From contig MQRK01219511.1 in assembly GCA_001938485.1 (NCBI GenBank), positions 1-49,238 of the forward strand: 49,238 nt of DNA, read 5' to 3'. The notes beneath the pieces were generated by a model, which made no database searches, had not been told where the DNA came from, and saw only the letters and a program-made list of their open reading frames with translations. Positions 4,546 to 45,886 of the stretch are shown piece by piece. The translations under genes and the position numbers were made by a program. Origin of the DNA: Girardia tigrina. Lineage: Eukaryota. Within the stretch, counting starts at the first letter, position 1. Each line of letters opens with the position of its first letter.

Positions 4546-5500
4546 TGTTTCTGTTCCGGTTCGCGGCACTAATTTGTAAGTTTTGATAAATGTGAAAGTA
4601 AAATATTACTATTAATAAATTATTAATAATAATTGAAAGAGAATAATTAAATAACAAACAAGGAAATATTTTTTTAATACTTTTATTAATTTACAATAAA
4701 ATACAACTAGATTCACCAACAATAAAATTTATGAAACTTAATCAAAAGCTGTTACTTAAAAAGGAATCACCAATGCTGGTTAATCCTTGATAATGACAGT
4801 GGATAATATAAATTACTGAGTTTAAAAATATAATAAGGAATTAATGATTTTAAGAATATTGATTTTAATTAAATAATATTAATAATGAAGGAAAATTGTG
4901 ATCACTTGAAGGAGCAAGATAATTATCAAATGTAGATTAGTCCTACTTCTTAAATTGACTGTTCTCATTTCCTGTTCGTTCGGCTTTTCGTCTCTTTTGT
5001 CAATTGATTTTTTCCGTCATATATCTCTGCAAGAGATAGTTCCGTGTCTTGGATTCGTTTATTTGAGAATTAAAATTCGTTCTTGTTAAATTTTAATTGA
5101 ATATTGAAACTTTTATGATTTTTGACGTATTTCCATATTTATTTCATATAATATCTTAAATCCTGTGTGGTCGCTTTGTTTGTGTTATTGATCACTATTT
5201 TTTATCTCAATTGATGAGAATTAACTTTGGATCGACCTCTAAATAATATGGTGACATAACTTTAAATTTTAACTTTAATAGTACTTTTACAATTAATTAA
5301 AATTGACCTTTTAAATAACCTTCTCATTTCTTTTAATTAATTATTCTTTAGTTATTCTTTCTTATTCTCCTGATATCTTTCTCCTTCTTTAATAAGTAAA
5401 TGACCTTCCCTTTTCTTTCTCCTTCTTTTATAAATAATTAGATACAAAAAATAAATACAATAAATTAATTAAATTCACACTTTTCTTTATACATAAAATA
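4546..5500. mobile_element. Possible solo-LTR-like element related to 14166-14923
   Basis: Starts TGTT and shares AT-rich motifs with the 14.2-kb LTR (AACAAG(G/A)A..ATTTTT near the left end; AATACAA..ATTCACA..TTCTT(T)ATAC near the right end). No TSD found; boundaries approximate. Confidence 0.3.
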
Positions 5501-6289
5501 TATTTTTTTATAAAAAAAATAAATTATTTTTCCACATAACCCAACAGTACATATTGTCAACCGATGGACAAGTATATGAGGCACAGTGAATACGCAGCGG
5601 TTTCTGACACTTTGCAGGTTTGAATAGGCCTATCAGATTTACATTGACGACATGGTCGTCTACTACCTGTGAAAGCAACTGTTGGCTATATCACTTCCAT
5701 TGAACCCAAACGAATGTTTCCACAATTCTCTCTGCTACCTGAATGACAGAATAAACAATAAGAGAATAATATTCAGTATACAACTACATACAATAAATTG
5801 ATTATCTTCACGGAGTTCTGCACCAAGCCTTTCTAGAAATTTTCGTCTTTTGGCGTGTGGTTCGTTATTGAATATTCGCCAAATGATGAATGCATTGAGT
5901 GCGGAAACGTCAAGCATATGTTGGAAAACACACATTCGCCAACGTAAGAACGTTTGCGAGTTGTGTAGAATGTACACATATTACAGTGGAACCCCGTTAT
6001 AACGAAGGAATTTTGTAGTCCCTGCTGCAACCTACATGTTTCAATGTATTTTCCCTCCCGTTATAACGAACCCCGCTATAACGAAAACCCCGTTATTGCG
6101 AAGAAAAAATGGCCCAAAATGTGAAAAATTGACCTCGTTATAACGAAGTCAATGCTGCTCCTATGGAAGCAACCATATGAATAAATTGCATTTCTGGGTG
6201 TGTGAGTTTTCAGTAATAGAGACGTCAGTGTCTGTCGTCAACTGACAGAGACAAAAATATCTTGTTCAATCAGAATAAGGTTTGAGTGG

Positions 6290-6745
6290 ATTAGTGAGGG
6301 ATAGATTGTTGTTATGGCGTGCCATTGCTCTCTATTCTCATTTGAAAAAGGTGGGTTATTTGAATTACGATAAACCGAAGCTTGGATACTGTCCCTCAAA
6401 ATAAGGTTTTCCAGAGCGAACACAAATTACAATTTCCTTTTCTTAATCCAATTATCGCAACTGGATCCGCGAGTTCATGTTTCATTGATGGATGTGGGTG
6501 AGTGAGTATTAAACTGTTGTTATGGCCGAGCCATCGTTGTCTGTACTCATTTGATAAAATGCGAGTTGATTGATATCGTAACGATGGCTTACAGGCTTGG
6601 CTACAGTTCCTTAAAATATGGGTTTCAAGGCAATCACAAATACCATTTCATTTTTTTCTGAAAGCAATAATCGAAGCTAATGCGATAAGTTGTAATCTTT
6701 TAATAGAAGCGGGCTAGACTGTTGTTATGGCTTAGCTCATGTTTC
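6290..6745 (+). repeat. ~207-bp degenerate tandem repeat (about 2.2 units) in the Tigger 5' non-coding region
   Basis: TGTTGTTATGGC anchors at ~6307, ~6515 and ~6720. Units 1 and 2 align over CTCATTTGA..GCTTGG..AAAATA.GG.TT..CACAAAT. Confidence 0.75.
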
Positions 6746-6865
6746 TTAATTGAGACAGGAGGGTAGGATAGGTTTTTTTTGCTGTGTCTACGGGTTTGTC
6801 TGGTTAGCCTGTCTCGATTATTTAAGAGATGTTGTGTTTGACGAGTGCATTATTTTCTGATTGCC

Positions 6866-8511
6866 ATGGACCAAAGTCGACCACGTAAAAGAAAAGCATT
6901 AGACTTGAAAGAGAAATTCTCTATATTAGAAGATATGGACAAGGGGATAAAGAAAAATGAAATCGCCTCTCACTACAACATCCCTCCTAGTACTCTCTCC
7001 ACCATCATCAAGCAAAGAGAGGCTATTCTCTCTGAATGGGAAAATGTGGATCTACAGGACGCAAAAAACTGCGCTCAAGTCCAGTCGAAGATGTTGAGCA
7101 TGCTTTAGAAACATGGTTTACCCAGCAGCGGGCATTCAATATTCCAATCTCTGGTGTGATTCTTGCAGAGAAAGCGAGGGAATTCGCATGTGCTTTGAAA
7201 TTTCCAGACTTTAAAGCAAGCAATGGCTTCTTGGATCTCTTCAAAAAGAGGCATGAATTGACGTCCCGTACTGTGTCTGGAGAAGCTATGGGAGCTAATG
7301 AAGACGCTGCTATCGCATGGAGACAAAATGTATTCCCGACCTACATACAGTGTTACAATGAAAACGACATCTACAACGCTGATGAAACTGGTTTGTTTTA
7401 CTAATGTCTCCCCAACCAAACACTTGCTCTGAAAGGTGAAAAATACATTGGTGGAAAAATTAGCAAACGCAGAGTTACCATACTGCTCTGCACGAATATG
7501 ACAGGAACAGACAAAAGAAAATTGCTTCTTATTGGCAACTCTCAGAAACCATGCTGCTTCAAAAACATCAAAAAAGAATCTCTCCCCGTGACATATTGCA
7601 GTAACAGAAAAGCGTGGATGGATTCTGAGACATGGAAACAGTGGTTGAGCAAATTAGACGCCGATATGATGCGAGCTGGAAGAAAAGTGCTATTAATTGT
7701 GGATAATGTATCTAGCCACAAGACCTTAGCAGTCACAAACCTGCATGCCATTGAGCTTGCTTTCCTACCTCCCGCAACAACCAGCCATATTCAACCTCTA
7801 GATCAAGGTATTATAAAGACCTTCAAGACGATATACAGATCCAAAATTCTTCGCCGTCTTCTCCTTTTGGTGGAAGCAAAAAAGGATCTTCAGTCGTTTG
7901 GCCATAATCTTTGACTGTGTTCAACTTTCGTCTCGTGCTTGGAGTGAAGTGGATACACAGACAATCGTCAATTGTTTTCATAATGTTGGTTTCCAACACG
8001 ACCCATTTCCAGAAACAATTGATAATTCTGCTACAGGGACATCTGAATCCACTCTAAATGAGACTAGGAACATTTTCACATTCCTCGCCAACAACTTTGG
8101 AATGGANNNNNNNNNNGAGGACTTCTTGGGAGTGGACGAACTTGTGTCAACGGAAGGTATCCTTCAGGATTCCGAGATTCTCGAAAAGGTTGGTAAATAC
8201 TGTAACAGCATGTGTCAAATATTGTATGATGTCGTAATTTTTTGTTTCTGTAGATTCGTCCTGGCTCCTGTGTTGAGGATGAGCAATCAGATGGTGACGA
8301 TATGGAGGAAAACGTTCCACCCGTGATCCTTGCGTCTATGTTAGAAAGCTTGACTACACTTCGACGCTACTGTGCCGAGCGAGGACTGTACGTTTTACAA
8401 CCCTTGGAAATTGTAGAGAAGGCTGTGGCTACGAGTTACATATCTCGTCAGTCAAAAATAACCGATTTTTTCCCTATATCTACTAAAAATGATCATTTGG
8501 TGTTGTTTTGA
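6866..8511 (+). pseudogene. pogo/Tigger (CENP-B-like) transposase pseudogene, DD32D
   Basis: HTH_psq-like RKRKALDLKEK, CENP-B-type HTH (FKASNGFL), NADETGLFY, DNVSSH...QPLDQG with 32-aa spacing, and a C-terminal PIP-box-like QSKITDFF. Frameshifts near 7035 and 7900; stop at 7402. Confidence 0.93.
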
Positions 8512-16841: not shown

Positions 16842-17502
16842 TGTATCGTGAATCTAACCTATAACTTTGTTCAGTACTAGTAAATAAATCTATAATAATA
16901 ATGTAACTAAATGATTATCGTTTATTTCGCCAAAAAACTTATTTTCTACAATTAATAAATAATCGAATCTTAAGAGCAAATGTCATTGTGGGGGTGATGT
17001 GGATCACGCCATCAATGTGTGTTACTCCGGGTTATCGTCATTTACTAGCGTTATGAGGCATTGAATTTATGTTAAGATACCCAACTTCTAAAGAGTTTAA
17101 TTTAATATAATTTTCGTAATTTAAATCGTTAACGTATTTATATTGGTTCTAATAATCATGTCTTAATTTCTTAAATCATATAATTCCAATTATAATAATA
17201 ATTAAACGTTGCATTGGATATCGAAGGTGATGTTCAGTGTTCCGTCGTGGCCCGTACATTCGGCACAATGGTTATTTGTCTTTGAGATAGCGTATTGTGA
17301 ATAAAGTAGCTGAAGAAATATATCCCATAGACACTGAGTCACAGACCCGGCCGTACTCGTTGTTGGTTTGAACCCGAAGACAACTCGAAGTTTGGCATTA
17401 TTTGTAGATGTAAAATGGAGAGTCCTAGTTCACTGGAACAGCCTAATTGTGAACCGGTCGAGGACAGAAATAATAGAAGATTTTGAAGGGTGGTACCCGA
17501 CA
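16842..17502. mobile_element. Divergent LTR-like element (copy E of the structured-terminus family)
   Basis: TGT...CGACA ends. Contains CTGAG..TACTCGTT..GGTTTGAACCCGAAG (17335-17380), shared with copies A-D. Flanks share ACC(T), an imperfect TSD. Confidence 0.55.
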
Positions 17503-18940
17503 ACCTGTGGGCTCAGGGCCTTGAGTAACGAATTGAGAACTTAGTTTTCATATCTCCAAAAACTTGACTTGACAGATATAATGAAAAAATTTTGTAAAAA
17601 ATATAGTTTTATATCAGAATCATATGATCTGCAAATAGTTGAAAATAATGAAGATCGAAAATTCCGAGCCCTAAACAGTGTTAAGACCAATTCTGTTTCC
17701 ATTGAGCATACCCTTAAGAACATGGTCGCACTAACTTTCAAGCTAATTGGTATTACAACAGAAATCGAAAGCGCTAATACAGAATCAGCAAGGGGTATTC
17801 TTGAAGCCTATGAAGAACTGATCTATTGACGTTCTGGTGTCCAGTTCTCAGAAGCCACCTAGCTTTTCAAAGCATTGAAGGAGGCTTTTCGGAGTTTCTT
17901 ATCTGGATTACAAATGTGAAGTCTCTAACTATCTTCTTCAGGACATTTAAAAGACAACGAAACTCCAACATCATTTTTAGCCCGATGGTGAAACATTTCC
18001 CTGCTCAATACAAAGTTTGATTTGTGGAGAACATAGTCAACCTTTTAACGGTTATCCATCATGATCTTCACAGTTGCACGGAAGTTTAGAAGTTTTTAGA
18101 AGTGGAAGTCGAATCAAAAACCGAGAGAGCAATAGCATGGGGATATTTGAAGACATTGGTGTATGAATCGCAGCAAGTTTGGCTTACTGGTATCATAGTT
18201 GATATTTTGAAAATATTTCATGATTTGCAAAAGCATGTATAGCTTAGCAACCTAATTCTACCAGAGGTAATAAGCAATAGAGATAAGGTACTTAGTAAAT
18301 TAGACTTTTTATCCAAAGCCCTCTATCCTGGTGGAGAGGAAGAGAAATTATAGCCAACAGGAAACAGAAACTCCACTTTAAGAGCTGTCAACATGAATGT
18401 GCTAACCACAGTAAATCATGATGCGGTGCGCCTCGAAATTGTACAATCGGCATATAATTATCTTATAGAGTGGTTTGATGTGGATCAAGAAGTAATCCGA
18501 GACATGTTAGCTGTTTTGCAAACAGCATAATTCAAAGCATTTATTATGGAAGAAGTGAAAATAATATGTTTGTTTCCAGAAGAATTCCAGGCTTGGAAAT
18601 ACTTTACCCACAATGACGTTGAAAACTTTGCTTCAGCTCTGCAGCGGTGTAATTTAAAAAGTAATATTGTCTTAGGAAACACTCACTCCTTACATCATGC
18701 TTGCAGAGAGACTTGTTTCTTTATACAACTTGAATTTTTAATCACATCGCATGAACATCTCAGCTGAGAGAGCCATCTCTTCCATCATGATCGGAATGAA
18801 TGACGAGGGGACATGTCTGTTTGATCCTCGCAGTACTGTGGTAGAGTTTTTATGGGTTGAAAAAAGTCGAGAAAGAAACCAAACCCTGGGTATTTCTTTA
18901 GAAAGAGACTTTGTTGCAAATTCTTTTTCCAAAAAGTAAC
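17503..18940 (+). pseudogene. hAT (ZNF862-like) transposase relic
   Basis: LIGITT..SANT..G (DG.S.N.G region), FWCPVLRSHLAF (CxxH region) and a dimerisation-like SAERAISSIM..N.EG..FDPR..VVEFL. Many stops. Confidence 0.65.
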
Positions 18941-19094
18941 AGGAGTTGATGTGTCGTGTAATATAACACGTGTTGAGCTGTTGAAAAAATGTTATGGGTC
19001 AGGTCACTTGTGCATGTTCTTTTAAACTTGAGAACACTTGATAAACAAACTGTTCGAAATAGGAAAAACCATTATAAAAACAGGAACAAATAAC

Positions 19095-20193
19095 TGTTAC
19101 GACACGAATACGATTATATGACACTGAGAAAACCCTACTTCACGTACAACATCCAGCACGCATGAAAACCTTGTCGAGAGTTTGAAGGGATAATCAAATT
19201 ATTCTTTCCCTTCCTTTCCTTTTCATCTATTTTTTCCCTTCAATCATTCCGTTTAATCACTTTATTATTTAATTAATTATTTAAATTAACCCGCTCCATG
19301 TGGTCCTTTTATTTAATTTATACGTAGTAATATGTTGTTTTGCATTTTCTTTTGAGTGGGATTTTAAAATAAATAATCTTTCGGATATCTATACATGCGG
19401 ACGTTTGTATTCAACTTTTGGTTATACAAGTTATTAGTTACAATTATCTATGACAATTGAGAGCAAGACTACGAACCATAATCCATAACATGAATTTAAA
19501 CTCAGCAAAGTACAAGAATGGCACGAGCTTAAAAGTCGAGGAGCATAAAATAACATGAGCTTAAAATCAGAAGAGAAAAGATGATAGGAATTGAGAATCA
19601 GGCTAAAAGGAGACAAGAGTACGAAAGCCGAAAGTGGTATAAACGAACATGAGACTGACGAGAGTGAATGTAAACTCATATGTAAACTTGAACACATATA
19701 TTAGATTTAGATAAAATAATTAATTTCAATTCAAGATTGGCAAATGCAGTGACATATTTATAACGTTGTGAGGGATTTAATGGATTCGAGTATTAAAATA
19801 ACGGCACATGGTTGACTGAGGCGAGGAACCTTCTGGAGGTGACGCAGGCCGACCGCAGAATACGAGGGGCACGCGGATTGTCCGAGGTTTACTTCCTTAG
19901 GGCTCTCTTCGTCCAATATAACTAATAACAAATATTCAAACAACAATAAAAGTTTAATATCAGCCCCGTCGGATACTGAGACCACCAGTCGGGCAATACT
20001 AGTTACTGGTTTGAACCCGAAGGCGCTCCAAAGCGCATACAATTTGTTTGTATACGTGGAGGAGTGCGTCTGTTCCCTTAACAGTGGATAATTACCGAGA
20101 GGAATACGACGTACATGGGAGTTACCATTGAACTCTAAAACTGATGGGGGCTCTGAGTCCACGAAAATGTTGTCGAGAAAGGGTAACACGACA
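19095..20193. mobile_element. Solo-LTR-like element, short form (copy A)
   Basis: TGTTACGA...CACGACA ends with a 4-bp TSD TAAC at 19091-94 and 20194-97. Conserved terminal block at 19820-20193. Confidence 0.88.
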
Positions 20194-20532
20194 TAACTGT
20201 TTTCCACCGAAAAAAGTTACTGTATTTTGGCACATGACCATTCCAGATTGCTTGTGCTACGAGTGAATATTTTTGAAAGAAAGCCTTGTCATATAAGATA
20301 CATATTAAATACATCATGTACACCAACTTATCACCTGGTATTTAGTACGTCCAAAATTGTGCCAAAGTTATAAATCAACGTTGAATATTCACTATTTTTT
20401 CGATCCAAACTTTAATAAAAATTAGAAATGTTTCGCAAAACGTATGTTGTACAAATCTTGTTATAATTAATACAAAAAAACTTTATTCATAAAAACAAAA
20501 TAACGTTAAAACTTGCCGATTTACAAAGCAGT

Positions 20533-21804
20533 TCATTTAGGTAACATGTTAATAGTATCTTCCTCATCAATATCGTAATATGATAATTTCTCGTCATCAT
20601 TTAAAATAATGCTATTAAATATAAATTGAATTCTGTTGGAATCGGTGTTCTGTTTGTTCATTTTCTTTATCAATTCCGATTTCACTTTCGAGATTATAGC
20701 GTCTCTGAATACCGTCATTTTATAAGATTTTGATGAATAAACGTCTCTGAAGAAAATCGAAACACTAGGGATATGTTTCGTCTTCAAAACGACCATTATA
20801 ATATCTCCATCGGAAATATTGTAATGTGATAATGTGTCAACGTCTATCAATAATTTTCCTTGAAAAACTAAATCTAAATTATTTGTATCAAATTGTCTGT
20901 TGTCGCTATTTATTTTTTTTAACAACTCCGATTTTGCGTACGAAATCAATCCAGTTTTGGGTAAACTTAACGTATATAGTGTTGATGAACGTATTTCTTT
21001 GAAACTAACTGAAATATGTTCGATATGTTTCATCTTCATAACAACCATTACTGTGTCTTCATCACCGATATTATAATGCAACAGTGTTCTATCATCATTT
21101 AATAAAGTTCCTTGAAAAACTAAAGCCATATCAGAATCAAAGCCTCTTTTTACGATATCATCACGTATTATTTTCAACAACGCCGATTTCACATTTGACA
21201 CAACAGTATTTTCTGGTAAATTTAATTCATAAACCTTTAATGATTTTGTTTCTTTAAGGAAAAATGTAATGCTTCTAACACTCTTAATTTTCCTGACCAT
21301 AATCACCAAATCTCTGTCGTTGATATCGTAATACGACAATGTCTTATCATTGGCCAATAAAGTTCCTTGAAAAACTAAATCAAATGTTTCACTTTTAAAG
21401 TTTCTTTGATCATTACTCATTACCTTTTCTAATTCCGATTTTACGTAGGATATTAAATTCGTGTTCATGAATGATAATGTATAAGTTTTAGTTGAGGTAA
21501 TTTCTCGGAAATTGAGTGAAACATCATTAGATGTTATAATTTTATTGATCATTATTATCGTATCACCATCGCCGATTTCGTACGACAAGAGCGATTCACT
21601 GTCGATCAATACATTTCCTTGAAAAATCAACACCAGTATATCATAAGTTAACTTACTATCAGTAATACTCATTTTAGTAATTAATTCTGATTTTAAATTC
21701 CGTACTAAGCTATTGTAAGGTAAATTTACCGAGTACACTTTATTTGAACTTCTTTCGCTTAGAAAAAGATTAATATTTTTGTTACTGTTCTGTCTTGAAG
21801 TCAT
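20533..21804 (-). CDS. Penta-ubiquitin-like tandem protein lacking di-Gly motifs (423 aa from first ATG)
   Basis: Uninterrupted ORF with five ~84-aa repeats. Each has a KS(E/A)L helix and an LVFQG.LL.D..TL..Y.I.D.D-like motif (more diverged in repeat 5) matching ubiquitin LIFAGKQLEDGRTLSDYNI. AATAAA on the minus strand at 20482-87. The ORF-track start at 21834 is GTG within a GTGAGT donor-like site. Confidence 0.92.
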   Translation of the reverse strand: MTSRQNSNKNINLFLSERSSNKVYSVNLPYNSLVRNLKSELITKMSITDSKLTYDILVLIFQGNVLIDSESLLSYEIGDGDTIIMINKIITSNDVSLNFREITSTKTYTLSFMNTNLISYVKSELEKVMSNDQRNFKSETFDLVFQGTLLANDKTLSYYDINDRDLVIMVRKIKSVRSITFFLKETKSLKVYELNLPENTVVSNVKSALLKIIRDDIVKRGFDSDMALVFQGTLLNDDRTLLHYNIGDEDTVMVVMKMKHIEHISVSFKEIRSSTLYTLSLPKTGLISYAKSELLKKINSDNRQFDTNNLDLVFQGKLLIDVDTLSHYNISDGDIIMVVLKTKHIPSVSIFFRDVYSSKSYKMTVFRDAIISKVKSELIKKMNKQNTDSNRIQFIFNSIILNDDEKLSYYDIDEEDTINMLPK

Positions 21805-23917
21805 AAATACGGACTGATCATTTAATCTACTCACATAATATTATTGTTTATTTCTAAATTTGATAATTGGTATTAACACGCACATTTTAGTAAACAATAA
21901 AACTGACTCGTATCATATATTTCAAATCAATTAAAGAAAAATTAAATGATCTTTATTAAAAATCTCTGATTTCCTTGTTATTTCATTTTCATTATTATAT
22001 GATATCGTGGAACCAAATTTAGAAAATAATAAATTATTTTGTATTTGTTGATTTGTTAATAAATGTGAAATTTTAAACAAACGATTTTTGAGATATTAAA
22101 TATTACTTGAAAAATCAATAATTAATTTTAAAATAATAATTAATTAATTTTGCTTAATTAACTTGGATAAATTTTACAATTTTGAAAAAAATATATTTAA
22201 AATAATTTTTTTCAATGTTTGTTTATAATTTTTTTTGACTGAATCAATAAATTTAAAATTAGAGAAAATTTTTAGTTGATTTAGATTATTAGGCAAACTA
22301 ATTTGAAAAATTATGTATCTACTTATAATTGTCGGAAAATTCAAATTTGAAATGAGTTTCGAATCGAAATAAAAAATTACATTGTCGACGGATAGTTTAC
22401 TGAACGAGTCGATGAAAAATTGTAACAATTAAACACTTTCGTTTTGTATTATGAATTTAATAGAGTATAACTTGACCGCTTTTTATTAGCGAAATAAAAC
22501 AGCAAATACCCAGCTCTTCAAAGAAATGTTTATTAACCATAAAGTTTATGGCATAAACGAGTTATTAAATATTCAAGTGATCTGAATTTTCAATCGATTG
22601 TTCATTTAATTCACGAATGTTATAATAGTGTCAATGAAGTACATTTGTCAAATGGTCGATGTAGTTAAAAATATCAAGTTTTTTCTCAGTCTTTCCGATT
22701 CTAATTCGTAATATCTCTATCCGATGGCACCATAAACTCGTTCGGCAGTTGTGGTGTGTTTGTTTATGTATCATTTGTGTAATTAGCGTGTCTGCCACTT
22801 ACAGTATTATCAAATTCCGAAATCATAATTTAACACCACAAAATTTATTTAAATTTATTTCATAAATTTTATTAAAATATATCGATTGTTATTACTGTAA
22901 GCATATTTTAAATAAGTATTTATTTTTATCATATTTTTACTCTAAATTTTAGTTTTTTAATTTATTTCTTTTAAATTTTCAAATTAAAAAATAAAAAACT
23001 ATTCTGACGAACCTTAAATTTAAACTAACCCCTTATAATTTGAATTTTAATATTTTATTCACAAAAAGTGTCATCTACACAAACCAGTCAGGAAGAGTCA
23101 ATATGGATTACGACAAAAAATAACAGACAGAGCACATACACATCCTATATGACACCCGATTACACCACCTTATCGAGAGAAAAATACTTGTAAACAAAGA
23201 TTTGCATTTCACAGTCAAATGACACACATAATTTTCAAAGCAATTTTCATACAATTTTAATACTACAAATCCGGACCACAGAATTTTGAGATTCAATTTT
23301 CCTTTCAACGACATCATTTTATTAAAATTTTTGTGAACCGTTCTAGCGTGCAAGAATATCATTTTAATCGGTGAAAAATCTTACCATCGACGTTCTACAC
23401 CAGTATCATTCCAGAAGTGCTCTAATTCAACTGCTAATTGTATCCAGCAAACCTAGATGGCTATATCATTTTGGTTATATCATATAATCACTAGGACCCT
23501 TTATAACTAAAACACTATCACTAAGGCGCTTAATCATTAAGAATCTTAATCACTAGACGTCTATTCACGTAATCCATTAATTAATGTTCAAACAAGCCTC
23601 TGTTCTATTTTGTTAAAAATATTCTATTAGTTATTACACAATTTAATTACACAATCACAATATAAATAAATAAATAAGGAGGTGCAATTATTGATTAAAT
23701 AAATTACTTAATTTTTAAAAGTAAGTGGGATGTTTCCATTTATTTTTTAATTTAAAATTTTTCAAAAATCGTTCTCCTTTATATGACGGAGAAAAAAGTG
23801 AAATTCAGCAAAACGTCAAAAAACAACTGCTTCATAATGAATTAAAAATTTTATCAAAATTGAAAAATAAATAAAATCAGATGTTTTAATAAAAAAATTT
23901 AATATAACAGCTATATA

Positions 23918-24147: not shown

Positions 24148-24519
24148 ATGCTTCCATCTAATGTATTCCGATTTCTTGACGAACCGTTGTACGGATTGGC
24201 GTTATATTGGCCAGACGACTTCCATTATGTGATCAAGTCGCGAAGAAACAATTTCTGGACGACCTCGGTCTCGGTTGGAGGATTCGAGCCGAACGAGATC
24301 ACGATCAAAGAAGAAATACGAATGATAAAATTATGGCTGCGGTAGGTGCATCCAGACACTGGTATCTCCGGCAAAGCCATTGGGATCATGAAAAATCTCG
24401 TGAACGACGTGTTCGAACGGATTGCAAGTAAGGCCAGTCGACTGCGAGACGAAACTCCCGAAACGAAAATCGAAGGAGAAAGACATACGGCCCTCTTTAG
24501 GGTCAAAATTTGTGATTGA
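24148..24519 (+). pseudogene. Chimeric small-HSP-like / histone H2B pseudogene
   Basis: One frame reads ..TTSVSVGGFEPNEITIK (alpha-crystallin-like), then [35 protein letters not shown] (H2B core, 24337-24444), then [11 protein letters not shown]. Confidence 0.75.
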
Positions 24520-25440: not shown

Positions 25441-26700
25441 TGTTGCGTTCAACATTTATATCTTACGCTAGACCCCCTTCCGTCCATTACACCACCCCGT
25501 GAGCACAGAATTGTCGTGAAATTTTGGAATAGTCAAACTCGACTATTCCCATTACGTTTAAGTGTACCCTGTGCGTCGATGAGATGGCGAATTCCTGAGG
25601 GGGCGGTAAACGCACCTTGAGAATGATCGCGAATCCGAAACCGACCAGAAAACGTTGCTGATACCTTTTGAAGAAAACCCTTGTCCTTGCATAACATCCC
25701 GCGCGCACTAAAGCCTTGTTGAGAGTTTGTGGAGATAGTCAAACTTGACTATCCTCGTTGGTTTTAAATAAGTTTCATGCGCGCTGGACGAAGAACAGGG
25801 TGGAAGGTTCGTAGGACCGAGTTGAAGTTCCGCCAAGATAAACCCCAAGAAAGACCATGTAGAAACCTTGAAGAAAAAGTTAATTGAAAAACTTTAATTA
25901 ACAAGTATTTACCGGCATGATTCAGAATGATTCATAAACAGCGACATTCTAAAACGGCAGTGACGTCCTGGGTGGCAACCTATAAATAAACAGATGATAG
26001 ATAAACAGACATCAATAATTATCTTAACATAATGATTCCCCCTCTTCTTTCATCCTGTCGCTGAACAGGATACCGCAATACGTAATCAACATTGCGAATG
26101 AACGCGGGCATCTGAAAGAACCCCCTCCCTTTCATCCTGTCAAATAAACAGCTATTAGAATTAGTATTAACGTTTCGCTGTAAATCGTCCAGGAATGATT
26201 TGACTTACCCGGAAACAGCGATAAACATCGAAGATGTCAGTAGTGTGCGAGCCAGCATCCGATGTCGCATCCGTGAATTGCGGATGTTACAGTGGCCTTC
26301 CCTCTACCCTACCTCGACGGAAAACCGACATTACATATAATGTCGAAGAAACGACGAGTCAGATTCTAATAAACATGTTTAGGTAAATCATTTAAACAAA
26401 TTGAATATGACAGGAAACCCGAGTGTGCCGGGCAAAGTATGCATCCTGTAGGGTATAAATACCCAAAGAAGTCGTGCACAAGTCGCAAAACTTTTTTAAA
26501 CTTTTACAAAAACTTTAGCCCAGAATTTTCAACCGCACTATTTAATAAAAATTTAATAGCACATTTTTAATTTTCAAGCACCAATTACGGACAATTTCAT
26601 AATCGCACACGCTTAAAATACATTATTGCATATTATTCGCTTGCCCCAGTTATCGTCAGTTTTATTTCGAGGAAAACGATTTTGCATAGATCAGTCAACA
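25441..26700 (+). mobile_element. LTR-like promoter module related to the TGTTACGATAGAG end of copies B and D
   Basis: Starts TGTTGCG. GTCAAACT(C/T)GACTAT at 25532 and 25738 also occurs inverted at 45771-89. GTGCCG..CTG(T/C)AGGGTATAAATAC at ~26425-26462 matches ~28511-28548. Right boundary unresolved. Confidence 0.55.
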
Positions 26701-27603
26701 ATTCAGGAGGTAAATACAATGTAGTTATTTAATCATTACCTATTTATCTCATCTTATTTAATTAATCTTTATTTCAATTTATTATGTGTACCAATGTTTA
26801 AGTCGATTTAATATACTTTAGTGAATTCATTTGTTTTATTCATTGCATTGTTTATTTGATATAATTTCTATAATAATTCTTTCTTTTATATATTGTTCGT
26901 GGACTTTGTGTGTTTATTTTATTATCATCGCTAATCGTTTATCTGTCGATGACCGAGAAAGACTTTCCCCTGATTGATATTGAAGCCGGAGTGTATAGTA
27001 TCAGGGATGATTTCAACGCGAGAGGAATTACGAGCCAGCTGAAGTTAGAAGGACAGTAAATAGAGAAGTTGCGTGTAAATACTTGTACATAAAGGGTGGT
27101 GTAGAATAGCGGGTTGCTTGAGGACGTTAAGTGTAAATAACAGATTGTATAAAGAATTCAGAATGGATATAACAAAGTGAAAAATTAAATAATTGAAATA
27201 AATAATTTATAGAAATAAATTGAATTACAAAATAAATTAAATAAGTAATTAATAATAGAAACCGATGGATGTAGTCAAAGTATACTTTGAAGAGAGACAG
27301 TTTTAGAGTAGGAGTCGAGATCTAAAGAAGAATACCAGTAACAAATATGACAATCGTGGTTGAAATAGTAGAGTACATTAGATAGTAGGTGAGGATAGCT
27401 CCTTTACGGATGAACAAGTGATTATGGATTTCCTAGACTATGGGTTGCTAACCTATAAGCATCTTGATTTACTTATTTATCTTAACCAGTTTAAAATATA
27501 CATCTATTTATTTATATGATGAATTAATTTTGATAAACAAATTAAACATTGGCTCATTTATTTATACTAATTAATTCAAAATGCGGTTCTTTTTATTCAC
27601 ATC

Positions 27604-29997
27604 TGTTACGATAGAGATTCCGGACTTTCCCAATATTGACGTCATTCCACATGCAAGGAACCTTAAAAAAAACAAAAAGTTGGTCATAGTTTGGTTCGAC
27701 TATAACCGTTATGTTTAAATAGGTCTCAGGAGCATGTGAAACGACAGACGAAACTGAGAGGCCCGTTGCCCTACGTATTCGTGATGAGAGACGTTGAGAT
27801 TGACCATTAGCTAAGAAAAAACGAATTTATTAAAATTGAAAACCCCGAGAAGACCATAAGAGCTCACCTGAAGGTAACAGAAGCCGGAAAAAAGGGTCCA
27901 GACGAAGGTTATTGATAACCGAATACTCACAGTCCCAGGAGGAGCCGGAAAACGTTACTGCGGGCACCTGAGAAACCCTTGAAAGGATCTAAAAAATAAA
28001 GACAAAGTTAAAACTAATTAAGAAAGTTAATTAAAAATACCGTGATTCATGATGAATCAACCCTCATACGAATTGCAGACAGTTGTGGAGACGAAATCCT
28101 AGATAAACAATGGTTAAACGTCCGACATCATGGAATAAATCACACCGCCCATGTAAACCATCTGTCAGAACAACATGATAAGTCGGCGTGCGGATTACCC
28201 AAAGCTGCAACTGAAATCATTAAGAAACATAAATCACCGAAAACCCCCGTTGTCTCCGATAAACAACAGTCATGATTGTTCACGAAGGATTTGATTAACA
28301 TCGCAACATATATGTGCATTTCGAGATGCGAAGTGACTCCCGTTTGCAGTAATTGGAAATGCTACATCCGTGAAGCAAGGACGTTGAGGTAAATGGAGGT
28401 ATAAACTGACGGAATAACATAGTCGCAGTCAAATAAACAATCAGAGAAACTATCATTAAACTTCCAACTAATAGGCACACGGGCTAAACACACAGAAAGG
28501 AAGACCGACTGTGCCGAATAATTCAATATCACTGCAGGGTATAAATACAAGAAATACAAGAAATGTATCTTAATGAGAAACACACAGTTTTACAGCGCAC
28601 ATAGTTTTATTTTACGAAAAATTTATACGAGTGATAGTCTTTACGACAATTTAATTTTACGCAAATTTTATTTCAAAAATTATATACGAATTTTATCAGA
28701 AATTGTATACGAACCTTAATCCAAAGCTATTCGTACAAAGATTAAACACTAAACCCATTTACGGAGCCGACGAAATCTTATAACGATCATTATTTATCAA
28801 ATCGTACATTTTCATTGGATGTACGTTCGCTATTCGTTGTGTAACCTTTTAATTCCTTCCGATAAAAATTTTCTATACTTTTATTTTATGTTATTGATCA
28901 ATTAAATATGCGATTTTTAGTTATTGTTATTTTTAATATACTTGATTAAAATATTTTGTCTCATCATTTTGACTCAAATATTCTGGTATTATAATGTAGT
29001 ATGCCAAATGGGAATGTCTTTCCGAGGCGGAATTTTAATAAACCTACAGTAAAATTTATTTTATTTTTACATAAATTATTTTTTTACATTAAATTTGCAA
29101 AATCTTAATTTTAACATCATATCTTAACATATCATATTCAACTGATATTTTTTCATATTAAATCGATATTTTTTTCATATTAAATACAAAATTTTTTCAT
29201 ATTAAATATTAATATCAATCAGAGTTCCTAACGATGTATGACATTCTTCGATATTCCGTTGTGAGGTCCCGTATGTCAAATTGAAATCTTTAATTAAAAT
29301 TCTAAAGTTCAAAATTTCGGATAAAATTATTAATATTCGATCGATGTTTATAAAATCAAAGTCTTAATCTCTAAAATCAAATAAAGGACTATAATTCCAT
29401 GGCAGTTTAGATGTAAGGTTCACGTATTAAAGATATTAAGAACAAGCATTTATTATTTATATCATTGCTTCTCCGTACTTTCACTAAAACTATCATCAGT
29501 TGTCATGAGTAAGATGTCAAATTATATGAATTATAAAATATAATCGAGTTAAAACATAATGGAGCATAGACACGAGTTGAACATAATTACGAGTAATAAT
29601 TGAGTCTCTGTCTGGGGCGAAAAACTTTGGGGAGGTGACGCAGGCTGGCCGCAGAATGCAAGGGGCACGCAGACTGACCGTTGTTTGCTTCCTGGGAGCT
29701 CTCTTCGTCTTACCTAAATAATGTAATTTGAAATGTAAGCTTTAGTCAGAATTAATATCATCCCCTCAGAAGTTGAGTTACCAGTCGGGCCATACTCGGT
29801 ACTGGTAGAGAACCCGAAGGCGCTCCAACGTACACACAACGTGTTGATGTGAGTGAAGGAGACGCGTCTGTTCCCGTGTTTATTGAATCGATGAATTATT
29901 GAGAGGAGTCAGAGATAAGTATGAGTTGCCGTTCAAATCAGAAAACGGATGGGGGCTCAGAGCTTGCAAAAATGTTGTTAGAGGAGGGATCATGACA
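27604..29997. mobile_element. Long-form (2.4 kb) TG..CA element (copy B)
   Basis: TGTTACGATAGAG...CATGACA ends with a 4-bp TSD CATC at 27600-03 and 29998-30001. TATA-like GGGTATAAATA at 28537. Conserved terminal block at 29616-29997. Confidence 0.82.
29032..29219. repeat. AT-rich dispersed repeat, inverted near-copy of 41154-41321
   Basis: AATTTTAATAAACCTACAGTAAAATTTATTTT... is the reverse complement of the 41.2-41.3-kb sequence. The core TGTATTTAATATGAAAAAATATCAATT recurs at ~42741 and ~48172. Confidence 0.85.
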
Positions 29998-30226
29998 CAT
30001 CTTTAATATGATAAATTGATTTAATTCTGTCCAATAGTTTTAATAATAAATCCGGTCGGATAAATGATGATTTAAAACATAATATTGGGTGATCCTCAAT
30101 CACCTGAGGCGCGAAAAGAAAGTCAATTTGTTAATTCTGTAACTACGACGGTAATATTTAAAATAATGAATCTTGAGAGAAAAATTGTTTCGTAAGTTAC
30201 CGTGTAAAAAGTTGATCCTTTCCTAG

Positions 30227-31322
30227 TGTCATGTATGATTTATGACCTGGTTGAAAAATGCAGAGAATAATTGAACTTGAACAAGAATTTAAAACATGGG
30301 TTTTCTAGACAAGTTTACAATGAAATAATAGCGAAATAATAGAGCAAACCGAGACAAAAAATTTAGTCGAGCTTGGTTGGTAACTTCGTCTGCAATTTGA
30401 GGCATAGTAGGTTGAAGTGAGGGTATTGCTGAGGAAAGTGAGAAGGGTAGAGTTAGTTAAACTGCTACTTCATACAAATCGTAAAGAGTAGAGCATTTGA
30501 GCAGGTGGAAATCTAGTGGAAACTGTGGTCAGGGAGAGTAGAGAGTAGACAAGCGAGAGCGAGATGTAGGGGTGTCGAGTGAGTCGTAGTCTTGGGTGAT
30601 TAACGTCGGTCGAGAGAGTATGGATGAGTGTTAGAGGTAACTAATGGAGCTAGTATTGATTCTAACGAACGTGTGGTTGACGAGAATAGAATGAGGCGAC
30701 GAGCAGTGAATATTGACTGAGAATTGCAAAGTAAAATGGAACAATGTAAATAAAACAAGTGAGTGAAAGGAATTAAATAAAATGACAAATGAATAAAATA
30801 AAATGAATAAAAGTTAAAACTCCTGTCTAAAATCAAGCTAAAATCTACTCAAAGACTAAAATAGACTAATCATCGGTAATATCGCGAATAAGATAAAGAG
30901 TTAAATACGTTAAAATGTTGTGATATAAACAAAAGTTATTGGAGAACGGCGAAGAACCTTCTGGAGGTGATGAAGGTAGACCGCAGTATGTAAAGGGCAC
31001 GCGGTTTGATCGTTGCTTACTTCCTTGAGACTCTCTTCGTCCGTCATAATCAAAATTAAAATTTTAAACAATCATGGAAAACGATATCGACCCATCAGAA
31101 GCTGAGACCACCTGTCGTGCAACACTCGTTACTGGTTCGAACCCGAAGGCGCTCAAAAGCATACACAACTTGTTGATGTGCGCGGAGGAGGCGCGTCTGT
31201 TCCCCCAAACAAGGAATAATTATCGAGAGGAATATGCAGTACATAAGAGTTGCCGTTGAACTCTAAAAACGGATAGGGGCTCTGAGTCAACAAAAATGTT
31301 GTCGAGAGGAGGGAACATGACA
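30227..31322. mobile_element. Solo-LTR-like element, short form (copy C)
   Basis: TGTCATG...CATGACA ends; 1096 bp versus 1099 bp for copy A, with a similar left end. Conserved block at 30948-31322. The TSD does not match (CTAG vs TCAT). Confidence 0.7.
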
Positions 31323-33417
31323 TCATGTTTGCTATTTTTTATTTTTAACTCGTTATGAGTTATTGTCTTTTCAAATAATTTTTCATATCCACGGGTCGAT
31401 ACATTAAGAGGACACCTTGGACGAACGATATACAGTGAAAAGTCGTCGAAAAGACAATTTTAGTGAAATTTTTTATAAATTGAAAATTTGTGAACAATTA
31501 CAATAATAACATCAAAATTTACCAAATTGGAGACAAATCGCGAGATGAAATTCAACATCGACAATTGGGTGTCAATCGACGTTGCAATGTTTAACGTTCA
31601 ATTAAAAGTTGAATAATTAAACAACTACATTTTGACGGTTGCGAAATCCTAGGAAAAAACATGAAAATTATTGAAAAAATATTTCGTTAATAAATTAAAT
31701 TAATATTAAGTTTAAATCAATTTTGGTGATGAAATTTAGATAAAAACTTTTACAAATAATAAACTAATTTTGACGAAAAGAGTGAATTTTAAAAAGAATT
31801 GAGTCAAATTGAGTGATTTTAACGATAATTTCAATGAAATTAACAAGAATGATAAAAGTAAATGAAAAATTTATTACAAATTCATCGATAATAAAGAAAA
31901 TTAGTAAAAACAATAAATATCATAGTTATTATGAAAAATAACAATAATATCTGAGGTTTCCAAAACCAATCCTCAGGCCAATTTTTGCGTCGGAACTTTT
32001 GTACAATAGATTTTTCAAGTAATTAATTTCAGCACGATAGCGAAGGAAAGCCTGAAATCACGATAAACCAGTATTTCAAATGTATGCAAGATGGGTAATG
32101 AAATAAAACATTAAATTTCGGCAAAAATTGACTCACCCGAAAAGATATAAATCCTAAGGATCTTAAAATTTCATCTGATGGCGAGAGATCTGAGATAAAG
32201 AATATTAAATTCATAAAAAATAAAAGTAAAAATCTAACCTGAGAGATTTTTCTTGGTAGTGAAACAGTACACCAACTGACGTTATGAATAATAACCGACA
32301 CACCTACCTGGCATATGATAAAATGATCCCTGCTATGACCAAATAAGGACTTGAAGGGTAGAGAAAAATAAACATACATTATGGGGACCACAAAACATGT
32401 ATTTATTTGGACAGTTTGAAACACAACCCTGGTAGAAAATTGGTATAAACACAGAGCAATTTTCAGTCAAAATCACACTTAAAATCACACTGAAAAATCT
32501 GATTAAAACTCACGTAATGAGTTGTAAAATGACTTAAAAGGTTGGTTCTATTAAAATTAGACTGAGAGAGGGACTGAGTGTTACTCTCTATCTCGAGTCC
32601 AGTAATGCTGAGGAGTGATTAAATTGATGAATGGTTGGACGATGATGGTATTGATGTTATGACAAGATGAAATTTGAAGAACTAAAATATATTTTCAAAA
32701 ATTGGGAAAGTTATTGTTACTCAATTTTAGTGAGAAAATAATATGAACTCGAATATCCTTGGGTAGGATATTAACTAATATCATCATTACAACTTATATA
32801 TCTCAAGGTTTAACTTGACTTGCGATTCGTCAAAGTCAAGATAAGTTCCTCATCTGGGAGTATAAGGACGAGAACACGTCCGAAAGACTTCATGTAAGAG
32901 CACAGTCTCGTAGTCGAACTTGCGATCTGTTGAACTCTTTTATGACTGGTAGGGTCAAAAAATCATTTATATCATTTAGTAATAAATTAAAGATTAAAAC
33001 GATTTGTAATTAAATGTAATGAAAGTGAAAATTGATTTTGTTGGTTAAATATATAATGAGATAAAAATTGTGTCTTAAATACTAGCATCTTCAAGATCAT
33101 CGACGCGACTTGGCATAAAATAGATATATTTCCACCGGAGGATTTGCGTGACAGGGTATTCGAGATCTCTATTAAAAGTGGTTTTAAATCTTAAAATTAA
33201 ATCAGTTACGATAAAGATAGTAGATCTGCAATTCTAAATCTTATTAAAATCATACTCACGAGAGCTGAGTTGGCATATCTGGTCATAGACCTGTGTAGGT
33301 CTGGAATCCGGAAGGTCCTCATCACCTGCCACTACTTGCAGATGACAAGCGGTGAGAGGCAAGTTGAGACTTTACCGAACGAAGGGGATAATATCAGTGA
33401 ACATGTAATTATAATTT

Positions 33418-34665
33418 ATGGGTGGTTACCTATCGCCTGGGGGCTCAAAGCCAATTAGATCAGTTCCCAAAAATGTTAGAAACTATATCGACCTCAACAC
33501 TGTACAGACAATGAAAACAAGAATTAATGTAATTTCTGTGAATTCGGCCGCAGTGATATGTACTATATCTGAAAATTTATCAGATTCTATCATTTTAGGT
33601 TTGCCGATGAAAAATGCTTTAAAGAGAACATTAAATAGAGAAAAGAAGAATATTTTATCTAATTTAATGATACATTAATCCACATCTGATTTAAATTTTG
33701 ATATGCCGAATGATTTCAATGATATGCTTTTATACGATTCTGGTTCAGGTAGTGATCATTTTCTTTTATTTGGAGCAAGAGATTTATTGAGTGGACTGTC
33801 TCATGCTAAACTGTGACTTGCCGATGGAACCTTTAAATTAGTTTCATCGTTGTTTTTCCAGTTATATATTATTTGCTTCAAACTTCCTACTGGTATAAAT
33901 CCTGTTGGAGTTTATTGTTTATTGCCCAACAAAACCCAGGTAATTTATGAAACAATTTTGCGTGAAATTAAAACTATAATTCCGAATGCTGCCCCAGAAC
34001 ATTTTTTGATTGATTTTGAGAAGGCGACAATTGATGAATTCCAAAAAGCTTTTGCAAGAATAATTGTAGATGGGTGTTATTTCCATTTAACACAAAATGT
34101 TTACCGAATAGTTAAAGAAATTGGTACGAAACAAGATTACAATGAGAGAGATGATATTAGATGTGCTGTAAGATGTTTGCCTGTTTTAGCTTTGGTTCCA
34201 ATTAATGAAGTAGATGATGCTTTTTTCGAACTTGCTGGTGTAATGCCTCAACATGAAAAAATGGGAGAACTGCTATCGTATTTCGAGCATACCTATATCA
34301 GAGGTAGGAGGCGTGTTGGCAGAATTGGAGTTTATAATCCATCCTTATTGCCCATCGTAATATGGAATAATTTTGAATCTGCCTACGAGAGAATTGCAAA
34401 AACTACAAATAGTATTGAGGGATGGCATTTCGGTCTTAAATCTCTCTTTCAGCACCATCATTCGTCATTATAGAACTTTTTATAGGAATAAGGAAGAATT
34501 TAAAAATTCAGAAAACAAGTAACCTACACGGAATTTCAGGAAATTCACCACATTTACCAAAAAAATATCGAATTTTAAAACAGAGAGTTATTGAGGCCAT
34601 TTGTCGTTATTCTGCAAGTGAAAAGCTATTATATTTGCTTGGTGTTGCAGACTTATCCACTAATA
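33418..34665 (+). pseudogene. Mutator-like (MULE) transposase pseudogene
   Basis: ADGTFKLV..FFQLYII, YCLLPNKTQ..YE, IDFEKA, GCYFHLTQ, YFEHTYI, TTNSIEGWH. Stops at 33676, ~33814 and 34471. Confidence 0.9.
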
Positions 34666-43407: not shown

Positions 43408-45886
43408 TGTCGTGCTCCCTTTTAAACAACATTAATGATGACTATGAGCCCTCATCCGTTTTCATTAGAGTTCAAAAGCAACTCTAACAATCACCATCTC
43501 TGTGTATAGATACTCATTACGCTTGGGGAGTAGACGCGCCTCCTTTGCTTGCATCAACGAGTTGTGCAAACATTAGAGCGCCTTCGGGTTCTTAAGCAGT
43601 AACGAGGATGTCCCGACTGGTGGCTGAGCTTCTAGAGGGGATGATCCCAACTTTAACGACTCAATTTCTCAAACTTGATTTTATTATCTCACGCCAGACA
43701 ACGATACCTGAACGAGACAAATGATGGTCAGCCCAAGTGCCCCTGTGCCTGCTATGGTCTGCCTGCACTGTCTCCCTGAGTTCCTTGCCGAGCAGTGACT
43801 CCATCATTATGATAATTATACGCAGCTACTCCCGTTGAACTACTTATATATACACTATATTTAATTACGTTTTAATGTGTTCATCATATTCCATCAAATT
43901 CTATTACATGCTATTATAACTTTATTATATTCGCTCATCTTGGGACAAAACTAACATCTGATGCGTATCCGACTTACGCCAAATTCATCACAGAACTACA
44001 ATTTCTCGAAGGATTAATAAAAATAACTTTGATTGAAGTTTTACATGATAATTCTACTCGACGCTTTAATCTCAGAAATAGTGAAAACCTTTAATTTAAA
44101 AGCTACGATTCCCCCCCCCCCGATCATTGAACTAACTACTGATATACAAAGTTATAGAAACGCTACACTCCTTCACTCCAACCATCAAACCAATAAAGAT
44201 AATTTACAGTTACTACAAAATCAGTATGAACAGTTTGAGAGGTTTATTCTTGGATAATCATAACGATTCTGATCGTCATTTCAACTTTACCTTTACCATA
44301 CGGCATTTCCCTGAAGTTGATGACACCCTAGTTTATACTTTGATCACCTTTTAATCGTCGCCTCAAAATTACTTTTCGACTTTAATTTTATTTAATCACC
44401 GTTTGTAATCCTAACAGGGACTGTGTCTCATTCTCTCTAATTGATAACACGCCGCTCACATTTACAACCATTAAAATTAGTATATAAGAAAAATAAAATA
44501 AGATATACTTGAAGGAGAAACGTTATTCATAAATAGGAAATTTAAAGAAAAACCATTTATCGAATATAGACGACTCTTAAACAAAAGAAGATGTAATTTG
44601 GTTGTGTGATTGTCAGTAAAAGAAGTCCGAGATACTCAGGTACTATCACACAAAGTATTAATAGTGCAGGAATGGAAGGTTGAAAATTTTCACTATCACA
44701 GAACCATTAACATTTTGATGCCTATTTAGCCACTACTACGTATGTAATGTTGTGAGAAAATGATTACTCTGGAAGTTTGTACAAATATTTACACAGATTC
44801 CGTCCATGCAACCTGATTACGTACCCGTACTCAAGGACCGCCTCACTCGATCCCTTGAATACGGAGACGAATCACGATCGTACTTTCGATTCTCAAGCAT
44901 CATGGACTCAGTCTCGGTATCAATCATGACATTATTAAATATTATTATGAAACGAATCAGACATTAATCAGAAATTATATATTTAATTGAAGTCGATTAC
45001 CTCAACCGATAAATAAAAATCACACCTCTAATTAATAAAATGAAGACATAAACAACTTCGAATCGCGAATTAAAATAACAAATGATAAAATAATAACTTA
45101 AATCACCAAAGTCAATTGGAGTAAATATGTGAATCCATAACCATTAAATTGAGTCGAAATAAAATAATTAAATTAATTCAAAATAAATAAGTTAAAAATC
45201 ATTAGAATTATGAGAGGAATAATTAAATAAACGAACAATGCATGATAATTAAATTAAAAGAACAAATTAAACTCAAAGTAATGCCAAAACCTTCTTTAAA
45301 CTCTTCTTTCAAATAATAATCGTCTTCGTGAATTAAAATTCGTAGTTAGAATAATTAATTTTAAAGTATACGTCTTCTTTAAGTATAATTAAATGGGGCA
45401 GTTGTATACGCACCGGTTCAGGGTACTTATCCCTCCGGATGCGTGTTTATAAACTATTAGACTATTGTGGTAGGGCATCCTGTTTCGCGATCGGGATGAC
45501 GGACACTGACCGAACCGTCTTGGCCCTGACATTGAAATAAATAAATAATGTCGGCATCGGGACAAACAGGATGTCCCTGGATTCGCATCGGTCGCCGCGA
45601 ATAACAATCATAGAATTTGTAAGTTCAATTTTTAATTAATCAATTAAAATATTTAATTAGGGTTTTTTGTTTTTAGCTTTTCATGCTACTCAAACGGATT
45701 GGAAGCAGCGGACCGGAATCCTGACCCGGCTCAACATCCCGACAAGCTGGGAGCCAATTTAAAACTACTTGAGGATAGTCGAGTTTGACAATCCTCAAAA
45801 CATACTGAACATGGCTCTCATACGTAAGGGGTGTCGGGTTTGGGAAGGGATTTATATGGTGGCATAATTGGGACTCTATCGTAACA
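43408..45886. mobile_element. Long-form (2.5 kb) TG..CA element (copy D), opposite orientation to copy B
   Basis: TGTCGTG...CTCTATCGTAACA ends with a 4-bp TSD GTTA at 43404-07 and 45887-90. TGCCGAATT repeats of the host sequence continue on both flanks. Conserved block at 43408-43790. Confidence 0.85.

Follow-up and report, generated by a model that had tools for sequence, protein, structure and literature searches.

A conserved structured module at the LTR 3′ end of giant Burro-like elements of Girardia tigrina: a candidate scaffold for the tRNA-Pro primer

A conserved block that recurs at one end of otherwise divergent LTR elements in the planarian Girardia tigrina is a real, strongly constrained RNA element, and on sequence evidence it is the LTR 3′ end of giant Burro-like Ty3/gypsy elements. 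We put at roughly 60% the probability that this module would act as a scaffold for capture of the tRNA-Pro primer and for control over how reverse transcription begins. How a retroelement chooses and loads one tRNA primer has long been disputed, and the cases of the HIV PAS and Ty1 box 2.1 each concern a single lineage and come with conflicting probing results. Here, three deep LTR clades with replaced helices retain boxes complementary to three primer arms, more weakly so for the D arm, and a duplicate 3′-end site. The result is a small RNA, available in thousands of natural versions, on which primer capture and hand-off can be studied in vitro. The module also supplies an orientation marker for Burro-type repeats and a predicted LTR structure with compensatory changes. 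Window coordinates below refer to the whole stretch of DNA analyzed, 49,238 nucleotides of contig MQRK01219511.1 (assembly GCA_001938485.1, forward strand); all module sequences were drawn from one genome.

Copies of the block and their parent element

The block is present in five copies in the window (A to E; Table 1) and in at least 2,476 copies in the genome, a genome search with copy A as the query having returned 3,166 first-look candidates. In a self-BLAST of the window, copies A, B, C, and D align mutually over the block only (19813-20202, 29609-30004, 30948-31330, and, inverted, 43404-43645), with pairwise identities of 61 to 78%. This agrees with the earlier note on this DNA, which had placed the block at four sites and had seen no alignment among the rest of the elements. 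The same note had suspected a distant copy near 17330-17502. A search of the window with a profile built from copies A to D recovers these four and the suspected copy E, but E spans about 17200-17574 and ends at an LTR terminus of its own. Copies A to D belong to clade I and copy E to clade III, while clade II holds most of the junctions between an LTR end and a primer-binding site (PBS). Of the ∼370 nt first assigned to the module, the universal core is the last ∼250 to 270 nt, and the first ∼110 nt are an extra 5′ domain seen in clade I. A 16-mer described as invariant in four copies is indeed present at 20013, 29810, 31139, and 43576 but is not invariant genome-wide; it is intact in 33 of 74 rows of clade I, in 0 of 45 rows of clade II, and in 0 of 16 rows of clade III, and only its first 7 nt are general across clades. 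Directly past copy E, in the flank outside the LTR, a decayed coding fragment (17580-18950, +) looks transposase-like by eye and has no Pfam match.

Table 1. Positions of the LTRs, the module copies and their parts (window coordinates), and of two example ORFs (locus coordinates)
Feature	Position	Strand	Remarks
Solo LTR A	19095..20193	+	1,099 bp, TG...CA, 4-bp TSD TAAC
Module copy A (clade I), LTR A 3′ end	19820..20193	+	Self-BLAST, profile, fold
Copy A D-box	19959..19967	+	Complement of tRNA-Pro D loop and D stem
Copy A T-box	20007..20019 (core 20013-20019)	+	Complement of tRNA-Pro T arm, gene nt 49-60
Copy A long-range helix, 5′ arm	20068..20077	+	Predicted partner, last ∼11 nt of LTR
Copy A predicted H-type pseudoknot region	20119..20144	+	Second stem decayed in copy A
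Copy A internal 3′-box	20145..20153	+	Same as first 9 nt of PBS; complement of tRNA-Pro 3′ end
Solo LTR B	27604..29997	+	2,394 bp, TG...CA, TSD CATC, TATA-like motif ∼28539
Module copy B (clade I)	29616..29997	+	D-box 29757-29765, T-box 29810-29816
Module copy B, further parts	29866-29875; from 29923; 29950-29958	+	Long-range arm; pseudoknot; 3′-box
Probable LTR C, B nested inside	25443..31322	+	Left end tentative (TSD 3/4 match); TATA-like motif 26453
Module copy C (clade I)	30948..31322	+	D-box 31086-31093, T-box 31139-31145
Module copy C, further parts	from 31247; 31274-31282	+	Pseudoknot; 3′-box (one change)
Solo LTR D	43408..45886	-	2,479 bp, TG...CA, TSD GTTA
Module copy D (clade I)	43408..43790	-	D-box 43637-43645, T-box 43585-43591, 3′-box 43446-43454 (one change)
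Module copy E (clade III), LTR 3′ end	17200..17574	+	D-box ∼17318-17330, T-box 17370-17376
Module copy E, further parts	17488-17505; 17506-17514	+	Compact pseudoknot; 3′-box (one change)
Example ORF after PBS	L202:880-1251		124-140 aa, without Pfam family
Example ORF after PBS	L276:72-485		124-140 aa, without Pfam family

Contig C240509 carries ubiquitin-like, Monjiviricetes fusion glycoprotein, PR, dUTPase, RT, RNase H, and IN domains; after these, in the same orientation, come a purine tract (PPT) and then a 3.45-kb LTR ending in a distant, clade II module (PF24664, E = 1e-22; PF00240, E = 2e-5; PF00692, E = 0.002, which is below the curated cut-off). The order PR-RT-RNase H-IN is present in this clade II element, and clade I is tied to pol through a homologous C-terminal tail, the PPT, and a fusion-glycoprotein match. 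A PPT precedes the opposite LTR end in 2 of 30 loci, and upstream of it lies a frame with a hydrophobic C terminus; among 150 scored relatives found with this frame, some open frames reach 1,500 to 2,300 codons. In 12 of 38 loci of relatives, this PPT recurs, with TGTT and then divergent LTR sequence behind it, and the 3′ LTRs of the LTR B family are preceded by a PPT and a polyprotein tail. A search with the clade III spacing pattern gave 0 matches. Three contig sets presumed to represent RNA each had one short piece on a clade II copy and were uninformative. A Ginger-like TIR DNA transposon and a LARD were considered as parent elements and dropped given the PPT, PBS, and pol. At L129:265-5838 and L123:304-6021, a frame of ∼1,600 codons lies past the integrase, with no Pfam match and a hydrophobic segment at its end.

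The protein domain order of the Burro elements of planarians is known, and the available sections of its description (PMC6431247) show Burro/GYPSM1 to share with the elements described here an Env-like fusion glycoprotein upstream of PR, a dUTPase between PR and RT, a ubiquitin-like (Ub/SUMO) domain, a small upstream accessory ORF, multi-kb LTRs, and thousands of copies. According to the same sections, Burro also has Gag CCHC knuckles and MATH/BIR/BCL2 domains and exceeds 30 kb; the likeness here comes from the other domains, in a fragmented assembly. Those sections cover the Burro proteins and are silent on LTR RNA structure and the PBS.

Sixty loci fetched with copies A and D have heterogeneous sequence past the module's CA, and in none of the 60 does a PBS follow it. 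The first reading was blind to the PBS because all copies in the window lack one, the PBS lying outside the window. In the genome, a pattern of LTR end plus TGG gave 204 matches, with a G-rich PBS in 6 of 30 loci read, and a pattern of LTR end, 3 to 5 nt, and PBS gave 183 matches versus 0 for the control. A tRNA-Pro(UGG) gene was found in the same genome, and the PBS is complementary to its 3′ 18 nt. Every junction seen uses tRNA-Pro, and one clade III locus has a decayed Pro-type PBS. Across 90 junctions, the spacer from the LTR CA to the PBS measures 4 nt in 68, 3 nt in 19, and 5 nt in 3; in junction loci L141 to L305, it is a variable T-rich run. The corresponding spacer in retroviruses is usually two bases, shorter than the 3 to 5 nt found here. 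In one locus (L281; G000:C175996:601-635), the PBS is prolonged by sequence complementary to the T arm and variable loop of tRNA-Pro, an extension that probably represents read-through of the tRNA-Pro primer, with RT copying past the usual stop. Many insertions without a PBS (L139 to L168) are followed by NNTGG, several of them inside other transposon or pol-like sequence; this could possibly reflect preferred target sites or stem from the pattern used in the search. A tRNA-SeC(UCA) gene was also predicted in this genome by ARAGORN (L347).

From this arrangement we infer that the module lies in U5 and closes a leader of 1.5 to 2.7 kb, so that it would be confined to the 5′ leader of the genomic RNA. 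TATA-like motifs are located 766 to 1,010 nt into three LTRs, with AATAAA 90 to 500 nt further on. Past the PBS, the downstream leader is predicted to pair with the 5′ half of the PBS (0.82 versus 0.54 when shuffled; 32 of 38 representatives). In clades I and II, an ORF of 124 to 140 aa begins ∼125 to 160 nt past the LTR end in many junctions, and it has 9 homologues among metagenome proteins, which are mostly 75 to 98% identical to local ones. For other species, two metagenome scans yielded nothing.

A long leader of this kind could instead point to translation control, with the predicted pseudoknots recruiting ribosomes as an internal ribosome entry site (IRES), possibly switched by tRNA binding. 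Some IRESs typically have multi-pseudoknot folds, and the module ends the leader shortly before the start of the conserved ORF, with a related small ORF past the PBS in many junctions. In LTR B, 27 ATGs are found from the first TATA-like motif to the LTR end, and one clade II LTR has a similarly AUG-rich leader. We nevertheless consider this explanation rather unlikely: the stretch from the module to the ORF contains ATGs that are not conserved, the leader could be spliced out, no Rfam IRES matched the window or six other loci, and the match of the top motifs to the primer tRNA (see below) would go unexplained.

Functional strand and predicted fold

The PPT, ORFs, and PBS place the sense strand on + for copies A, B, C, and E and on - for copy D. 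The earlier note had read the module from its TGTC(A/G)TG end and had held that G-U pairs favor that strand; the sense strand of the element is the opposite one, and the counts favor sense. For pairs predicted on both strands and written in sense letters, the ratios of G-U to A-C are 205:78, 46:14, and 35:26, and held-out rows gave 76:50 and 53:27. Unpaired columns show more G>A than C>T and, in two of three clades, more T>C than A>G, a background that favors A-C. Opposite two nearly invariant G's in the small hairpin of clade I, 51 of 102 cells hold T and 46 hold C, a wobble pattern that is readable only on the sense strand. With RNAalifold, both strands beat shuffled columns, and sense folds lower by 8 to 15 kcal/mol.

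These data bear on the possibility that the functional molecule is antisense, reads from the TGTC(A/G)TG end, and carries either a UUCG tetraloop or a Pol III B-box; we regard this as extremely improbable. Alignments of the antisense strand, too, outdo shuffled columns in folding (z = -6.5, -7.5, and -6.9), and copies A, C, and E contain a B-box-like GTTCRAAC, but this B-box is missing from copies B and D, and both the folding energies and the counts of G-U versus A-C side with sense. The cUUCGg tetraloop of the earlier note turns out to be an antisense motif found in 51 of 74 clade I rows and lost in clades II and III (20 of 45 and 1 of 16).

For the fold alignments, ten truncated or chimeric loci were removed and the remainder clustered at 93%, leaving 53 of 78 rows in clade I, 28 of 35 in clade II, and 16 of 21 in clade III. 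Independent RNAalifold folds of the three clades are congruent and share one core arrangement on the sense strand. A bulged hairpin whose loop has 5 nt comes first, followed by an unpaired linker, a long hairpin, a helix to the last bases of the LTR, an H-type pseudoknot region, and a small hairpin. The terminal helix of clade III was recognized by eye and is absent from the alifold result. Between clades I and II, the helix to the LTR terminus and both pseudoknot stems differ in sequence with pairing kept.

Double compensatory events numbered 35, 11, and 13 in clades I to III versus 3.6, 0.4, and 1.6 in refold nulls, which degrade pairing and are lenient. A held-out set of 40 further loci, 38 of them usable, provided 19 and 17 rows less than 90% identical to any training row. 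In these rows, pairs fixed beforehand form in 86.0% and 84.5% of cells compared with 35 to 45% for slid partners, pairing survives in 114 of 141 and 60 of 65 cells with both bases changed, and both pseudoknot stems are 90 to 98% paired. An all-pairs G-test with APC and a tree null identified no pair at E < 0.05 (best values, 0.2 and 0.15), and when the test was restricted to proposed pairs, 6 of 85 and 3 of 70 passed. Covariation was not significant in the all-pairs test; structure-level, tree-aware, and held-out tests were strongly positive. Copy C folded alone is no better than shuffles on either strand (z about 0.4). The stems named in the earlier note match predicted helices with compensatory change, and its proposal of an undescribed conserved structured cis-acting RNA at the LTR end is supported; its list of candidate functions (packaging, export, translation, stability, or ribozyme) omitted a role for the tRNA-Pro primer.

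Comparison with Rfam gave no match for the window (E ≤ 1) or for six other loci (E ≤ 5); the output consisted of chance miRNA and lncRNA hits far below the gathering score and included no ribozyme, IRES, or T-box family. The first reading had likewise recognized no hammerhead, twister, pistol, or HDV core. Copy A contains a hammerhead-like CUGAUG...GAAA, a motif that shows no conservation. A new ribozyme, either self-cleaving or acting on bound tRNA, might be suggested by the crossing long-range helices, the invariant unpaired runs, and a possible helix with a conserved A-C pair between two of the boxes described below (T-box and 3′-box). We judge it highly improbable, given that complementarity to tRNA explains the invariant runs, that no Rfam ribozyme matched, and that cleavage in U5 would cut the RT template. 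Furthermore, the PBS is of the ordinary 18-nt type, and a cut primer is therefore unnecessary.

Boxes complementary to tRNA-Pro

Motifs upstream of the PBS were counted in 52 clean junctions, chosen solely on LTR end and PBS, which yielded 34 representatives. Within the 300 nt upstream, the four most frequent 7-mers are without exception complements of tRNA-Pro. Three of them correspond to its last nine bases and are found in 27 to 28 of 34 representatives about 48 nt before the LTR end (3′-box); the fourth corresponds to the T arm, gene nt 49-55, and is found in 24 of 34 about 185 to 205 nt before the LTR end (T-box). Both boxes rank among the longest conserved runs. Exact co-occurrence of the two at a spacing of 105 to 135 nt was detected 2,476 times versus 0 for the control, and the genome-wide set holds sites by the thousand that could pair with the 3′ end of tRNA-Pro. 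A further box at the 5′ start of the core (D-box) could pair with the D loop and stem; across its variants, about nine pairs are retained round a one-base bulge.

In a hybridization profile along the tRNA, compared with shuffles, the 3′ end stands out at -8.5 kcal/mol and the T arm at -3.5 kcal/mol, while the D arm, at -1.6 kcal/mol, is similar to other bumps. When the boxes were scored against shuffled tRNAs, 0, 0, and 1 of 150 were as good for the 3′-box, for which tRNA-Pro also beats six other host tRNAs. For the T-box, 6, 5, and 0 of 150 were as good; this box is not Pro specific, and Ile and Leu tRNAs fit equally well or better in clades I and II. For the D-box, which is weak in the unbiased profile, 24, 7, and 0 of 150 were as good, and tRNA-Pro is the best of seven tRNAs in all clades, with Asp in a near tie in clade II. 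Two control motifs showed no excess of complementarity in the same test.

In the window copies, the three predicted duplexes do not overlap and take up tRNA nt ∼10-26, 49-60, and 65-75. The T-box, which is predicted to be unpaired in the fold, would form a duplex of 7 to 12 bp with the tRNA, and its extension reaches bases that the true PBS would need; the internal set therefore looks self-contained. The idea of a hairpin loop that reads the anticodon (CCA) was dropped, since this loop is variable among clade I copies.

Along the sense RNA, the boxes are ordered D, T, 3′, the reverse of an antisense tRNA copy. This order counts against a reading of the boxes as DNA-level signals or relics, that is, as fossil tRNA copies or an older LTR end and PBS kept by integrase, binding sites, or gene conversion. 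It is true that tRNA sequence does enter the element, as in L281, and that the internal box of clade II lies 1 nt after a CA and so resembles an old LTR end. However, the boxes are best conserved while the helices are replaced compensatorily, the G-U excess indicates a single-stranded sense molecule, the copies are 61 to 78% identical with divergent linkers, and the internal box is extended to a full PBS in no fetched copy. We regard relics as very unlikely.

The boxes also have alternative partners: the T-box can pair with the 3′-box with one A-C mismatch, and the CCCC of the D-box can pair with the G run of the 3′-box, so that intramolecular pairing may account for part of the conservation. 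Such pairings would suit a packaging or dimerization signal read by Gag, in which the boxes pair within the RNA, between genomes, or via a second, bridging tRNA. The location next to the PBS and the strong predicted structure would fit as well, and tRNA-bridged dimers have been proposed for Ty1 and Ty3 (PMC4974528, in the sections available). On the other hand, we noted no self-complementary loop that is conserved, the 3′-box is backed by a variable loop, and a signal read by protein needs no Pro-specific complementarity of the 3′-box and D-box, making this explanation unlikely in our view.

A proposed primer-capture mechanism and known primer interactions

Primer capture by the module, the reading that we prefer, might operate as follows. 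The free CCCA end of the tRNA would dock on the 5′ bases of the internal 3′-box, which begins 0 to 1 nt past the second pseudoknot stem, and the docked end would open the small hairpin in which the remaining bases of the box are hidden. The D- and T-boxes would hold the opened D and T arms and leave the anticodon arm intact, while the pseudoknot would block extension at the internal box and the helix to the LTR terminus would place the dock beside the true PBS. With the 5′ half of the true PBS predicted to be masked by the downstream leader, a nucleocapsid-type chaperone would shift the tRNA 3′ end to the PBS, and the T-box would act like the HIV PAS. We advance a more far-reaching version only tentatively and consider it doubtful: a self-contained RNA of an animal retroelement would hold one tRNA-Pro away from the PBS, gripping its D arm, its T arm, and its free CCA end, would accept only uncharged tRNA since the pseudoknot abuts A76, and would work as a T-box-like switch between translation of the long leader and primer loading with reverse transcription.

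Judged from its sequence, the module would be a further form of extended primer-tRNA interaction, one placed wholly upstream of a full 18-nt PBS. In the available sections of the literature on Ty1, regions complementary to the T and D arms are described as enabling primer packaging and initiation (PMC4974528), roles that the module would share, and box 2.1 as not confirmed in particles (PMC3592414). To the extent covered by these two sources, the module shares with Ty1 boxes 0, 1, and 2.1 and with the bipartite PBS of Ty3 segments complementary to the acceptor, T, and, more weakly in the module, D regions, and a pseudoknot near the PBS, which in the module is predicted, is common to it and Ty1. 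Ty1 and Ty3, according to the same sections (PMC3592414, PMC4974528), use tRNA-iMet, a short PBS, and boxes in GAG or the 3′ UTR, whereas in the module the boxes upstream in the LTR, the full 18-nt PBS, and the second 3′-end box would make up a self-contained dock.

The PAS of HIV has been reported to pair with the T arm of the primer (PMC11181671), and this pairing has been challenged (PMC3185550). As far as the available portions of these two papers extend, the HIV-1 PAS and the RSV U5-T-loop interaction resemble the module in having a short U5 motif that matches the T arm on its 5′ strand and that precedes an 18-nt PBS within a structured segment; the HIV PAS is paired in a stem, whereas the T-box of the module is predicted to be unpaired, and neither a D-arm box nor a duplicate 3′-end box is described there for HIV-1 or RSV (PMC11181671, PMC3185550). 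The module differs further from HIV-1 and RSV as a segment of 250 to 380 nt with a predicted pseudoknot and a helix to the LTR terminus.

The bacterial T-box riboswitch is a structured RNA that reads the free NCCA end of a tRNA via a UGGN motif adjoining a helix. The module would similarly read a free tRNA end through UGGN next to a helix, but it has no Rfam T-box match and no conserved specifier codon, its acceptor pairing would comprise 9 to 11 bp rather than 4, and it would bind an opened tRNA rather than the L-shaped tRNA bound by the riboswitch. In the literature searched, as far as the texts were available, we found no counterpart of the duplicate 3′-end site and no description of structure in Burro-type LTRs (including PMC8532177; the Burro genome paper, Repbase, and supplements aside).

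Apart from the module copies, the window contains several other features. An intronless 435-codon frame at 20533-21840 (-) encodes five ubiquitin-like repeats (PF00240), and a gene at 36900-39700 (-) has repeated short exons resembling C-type lectin domains, separated by introns of ∼50 to 60 nt, one exon of which matches PF00059 (E = 0.007). A broken histone H2B-like fragment is located at 24337-24456 (+; PF00125, E = 1e-4), and transposase relics of Tc1/mariner, pogo/Tc5, and MULE types are present at 1032-8326, 33817-34473, and 46611-47592.
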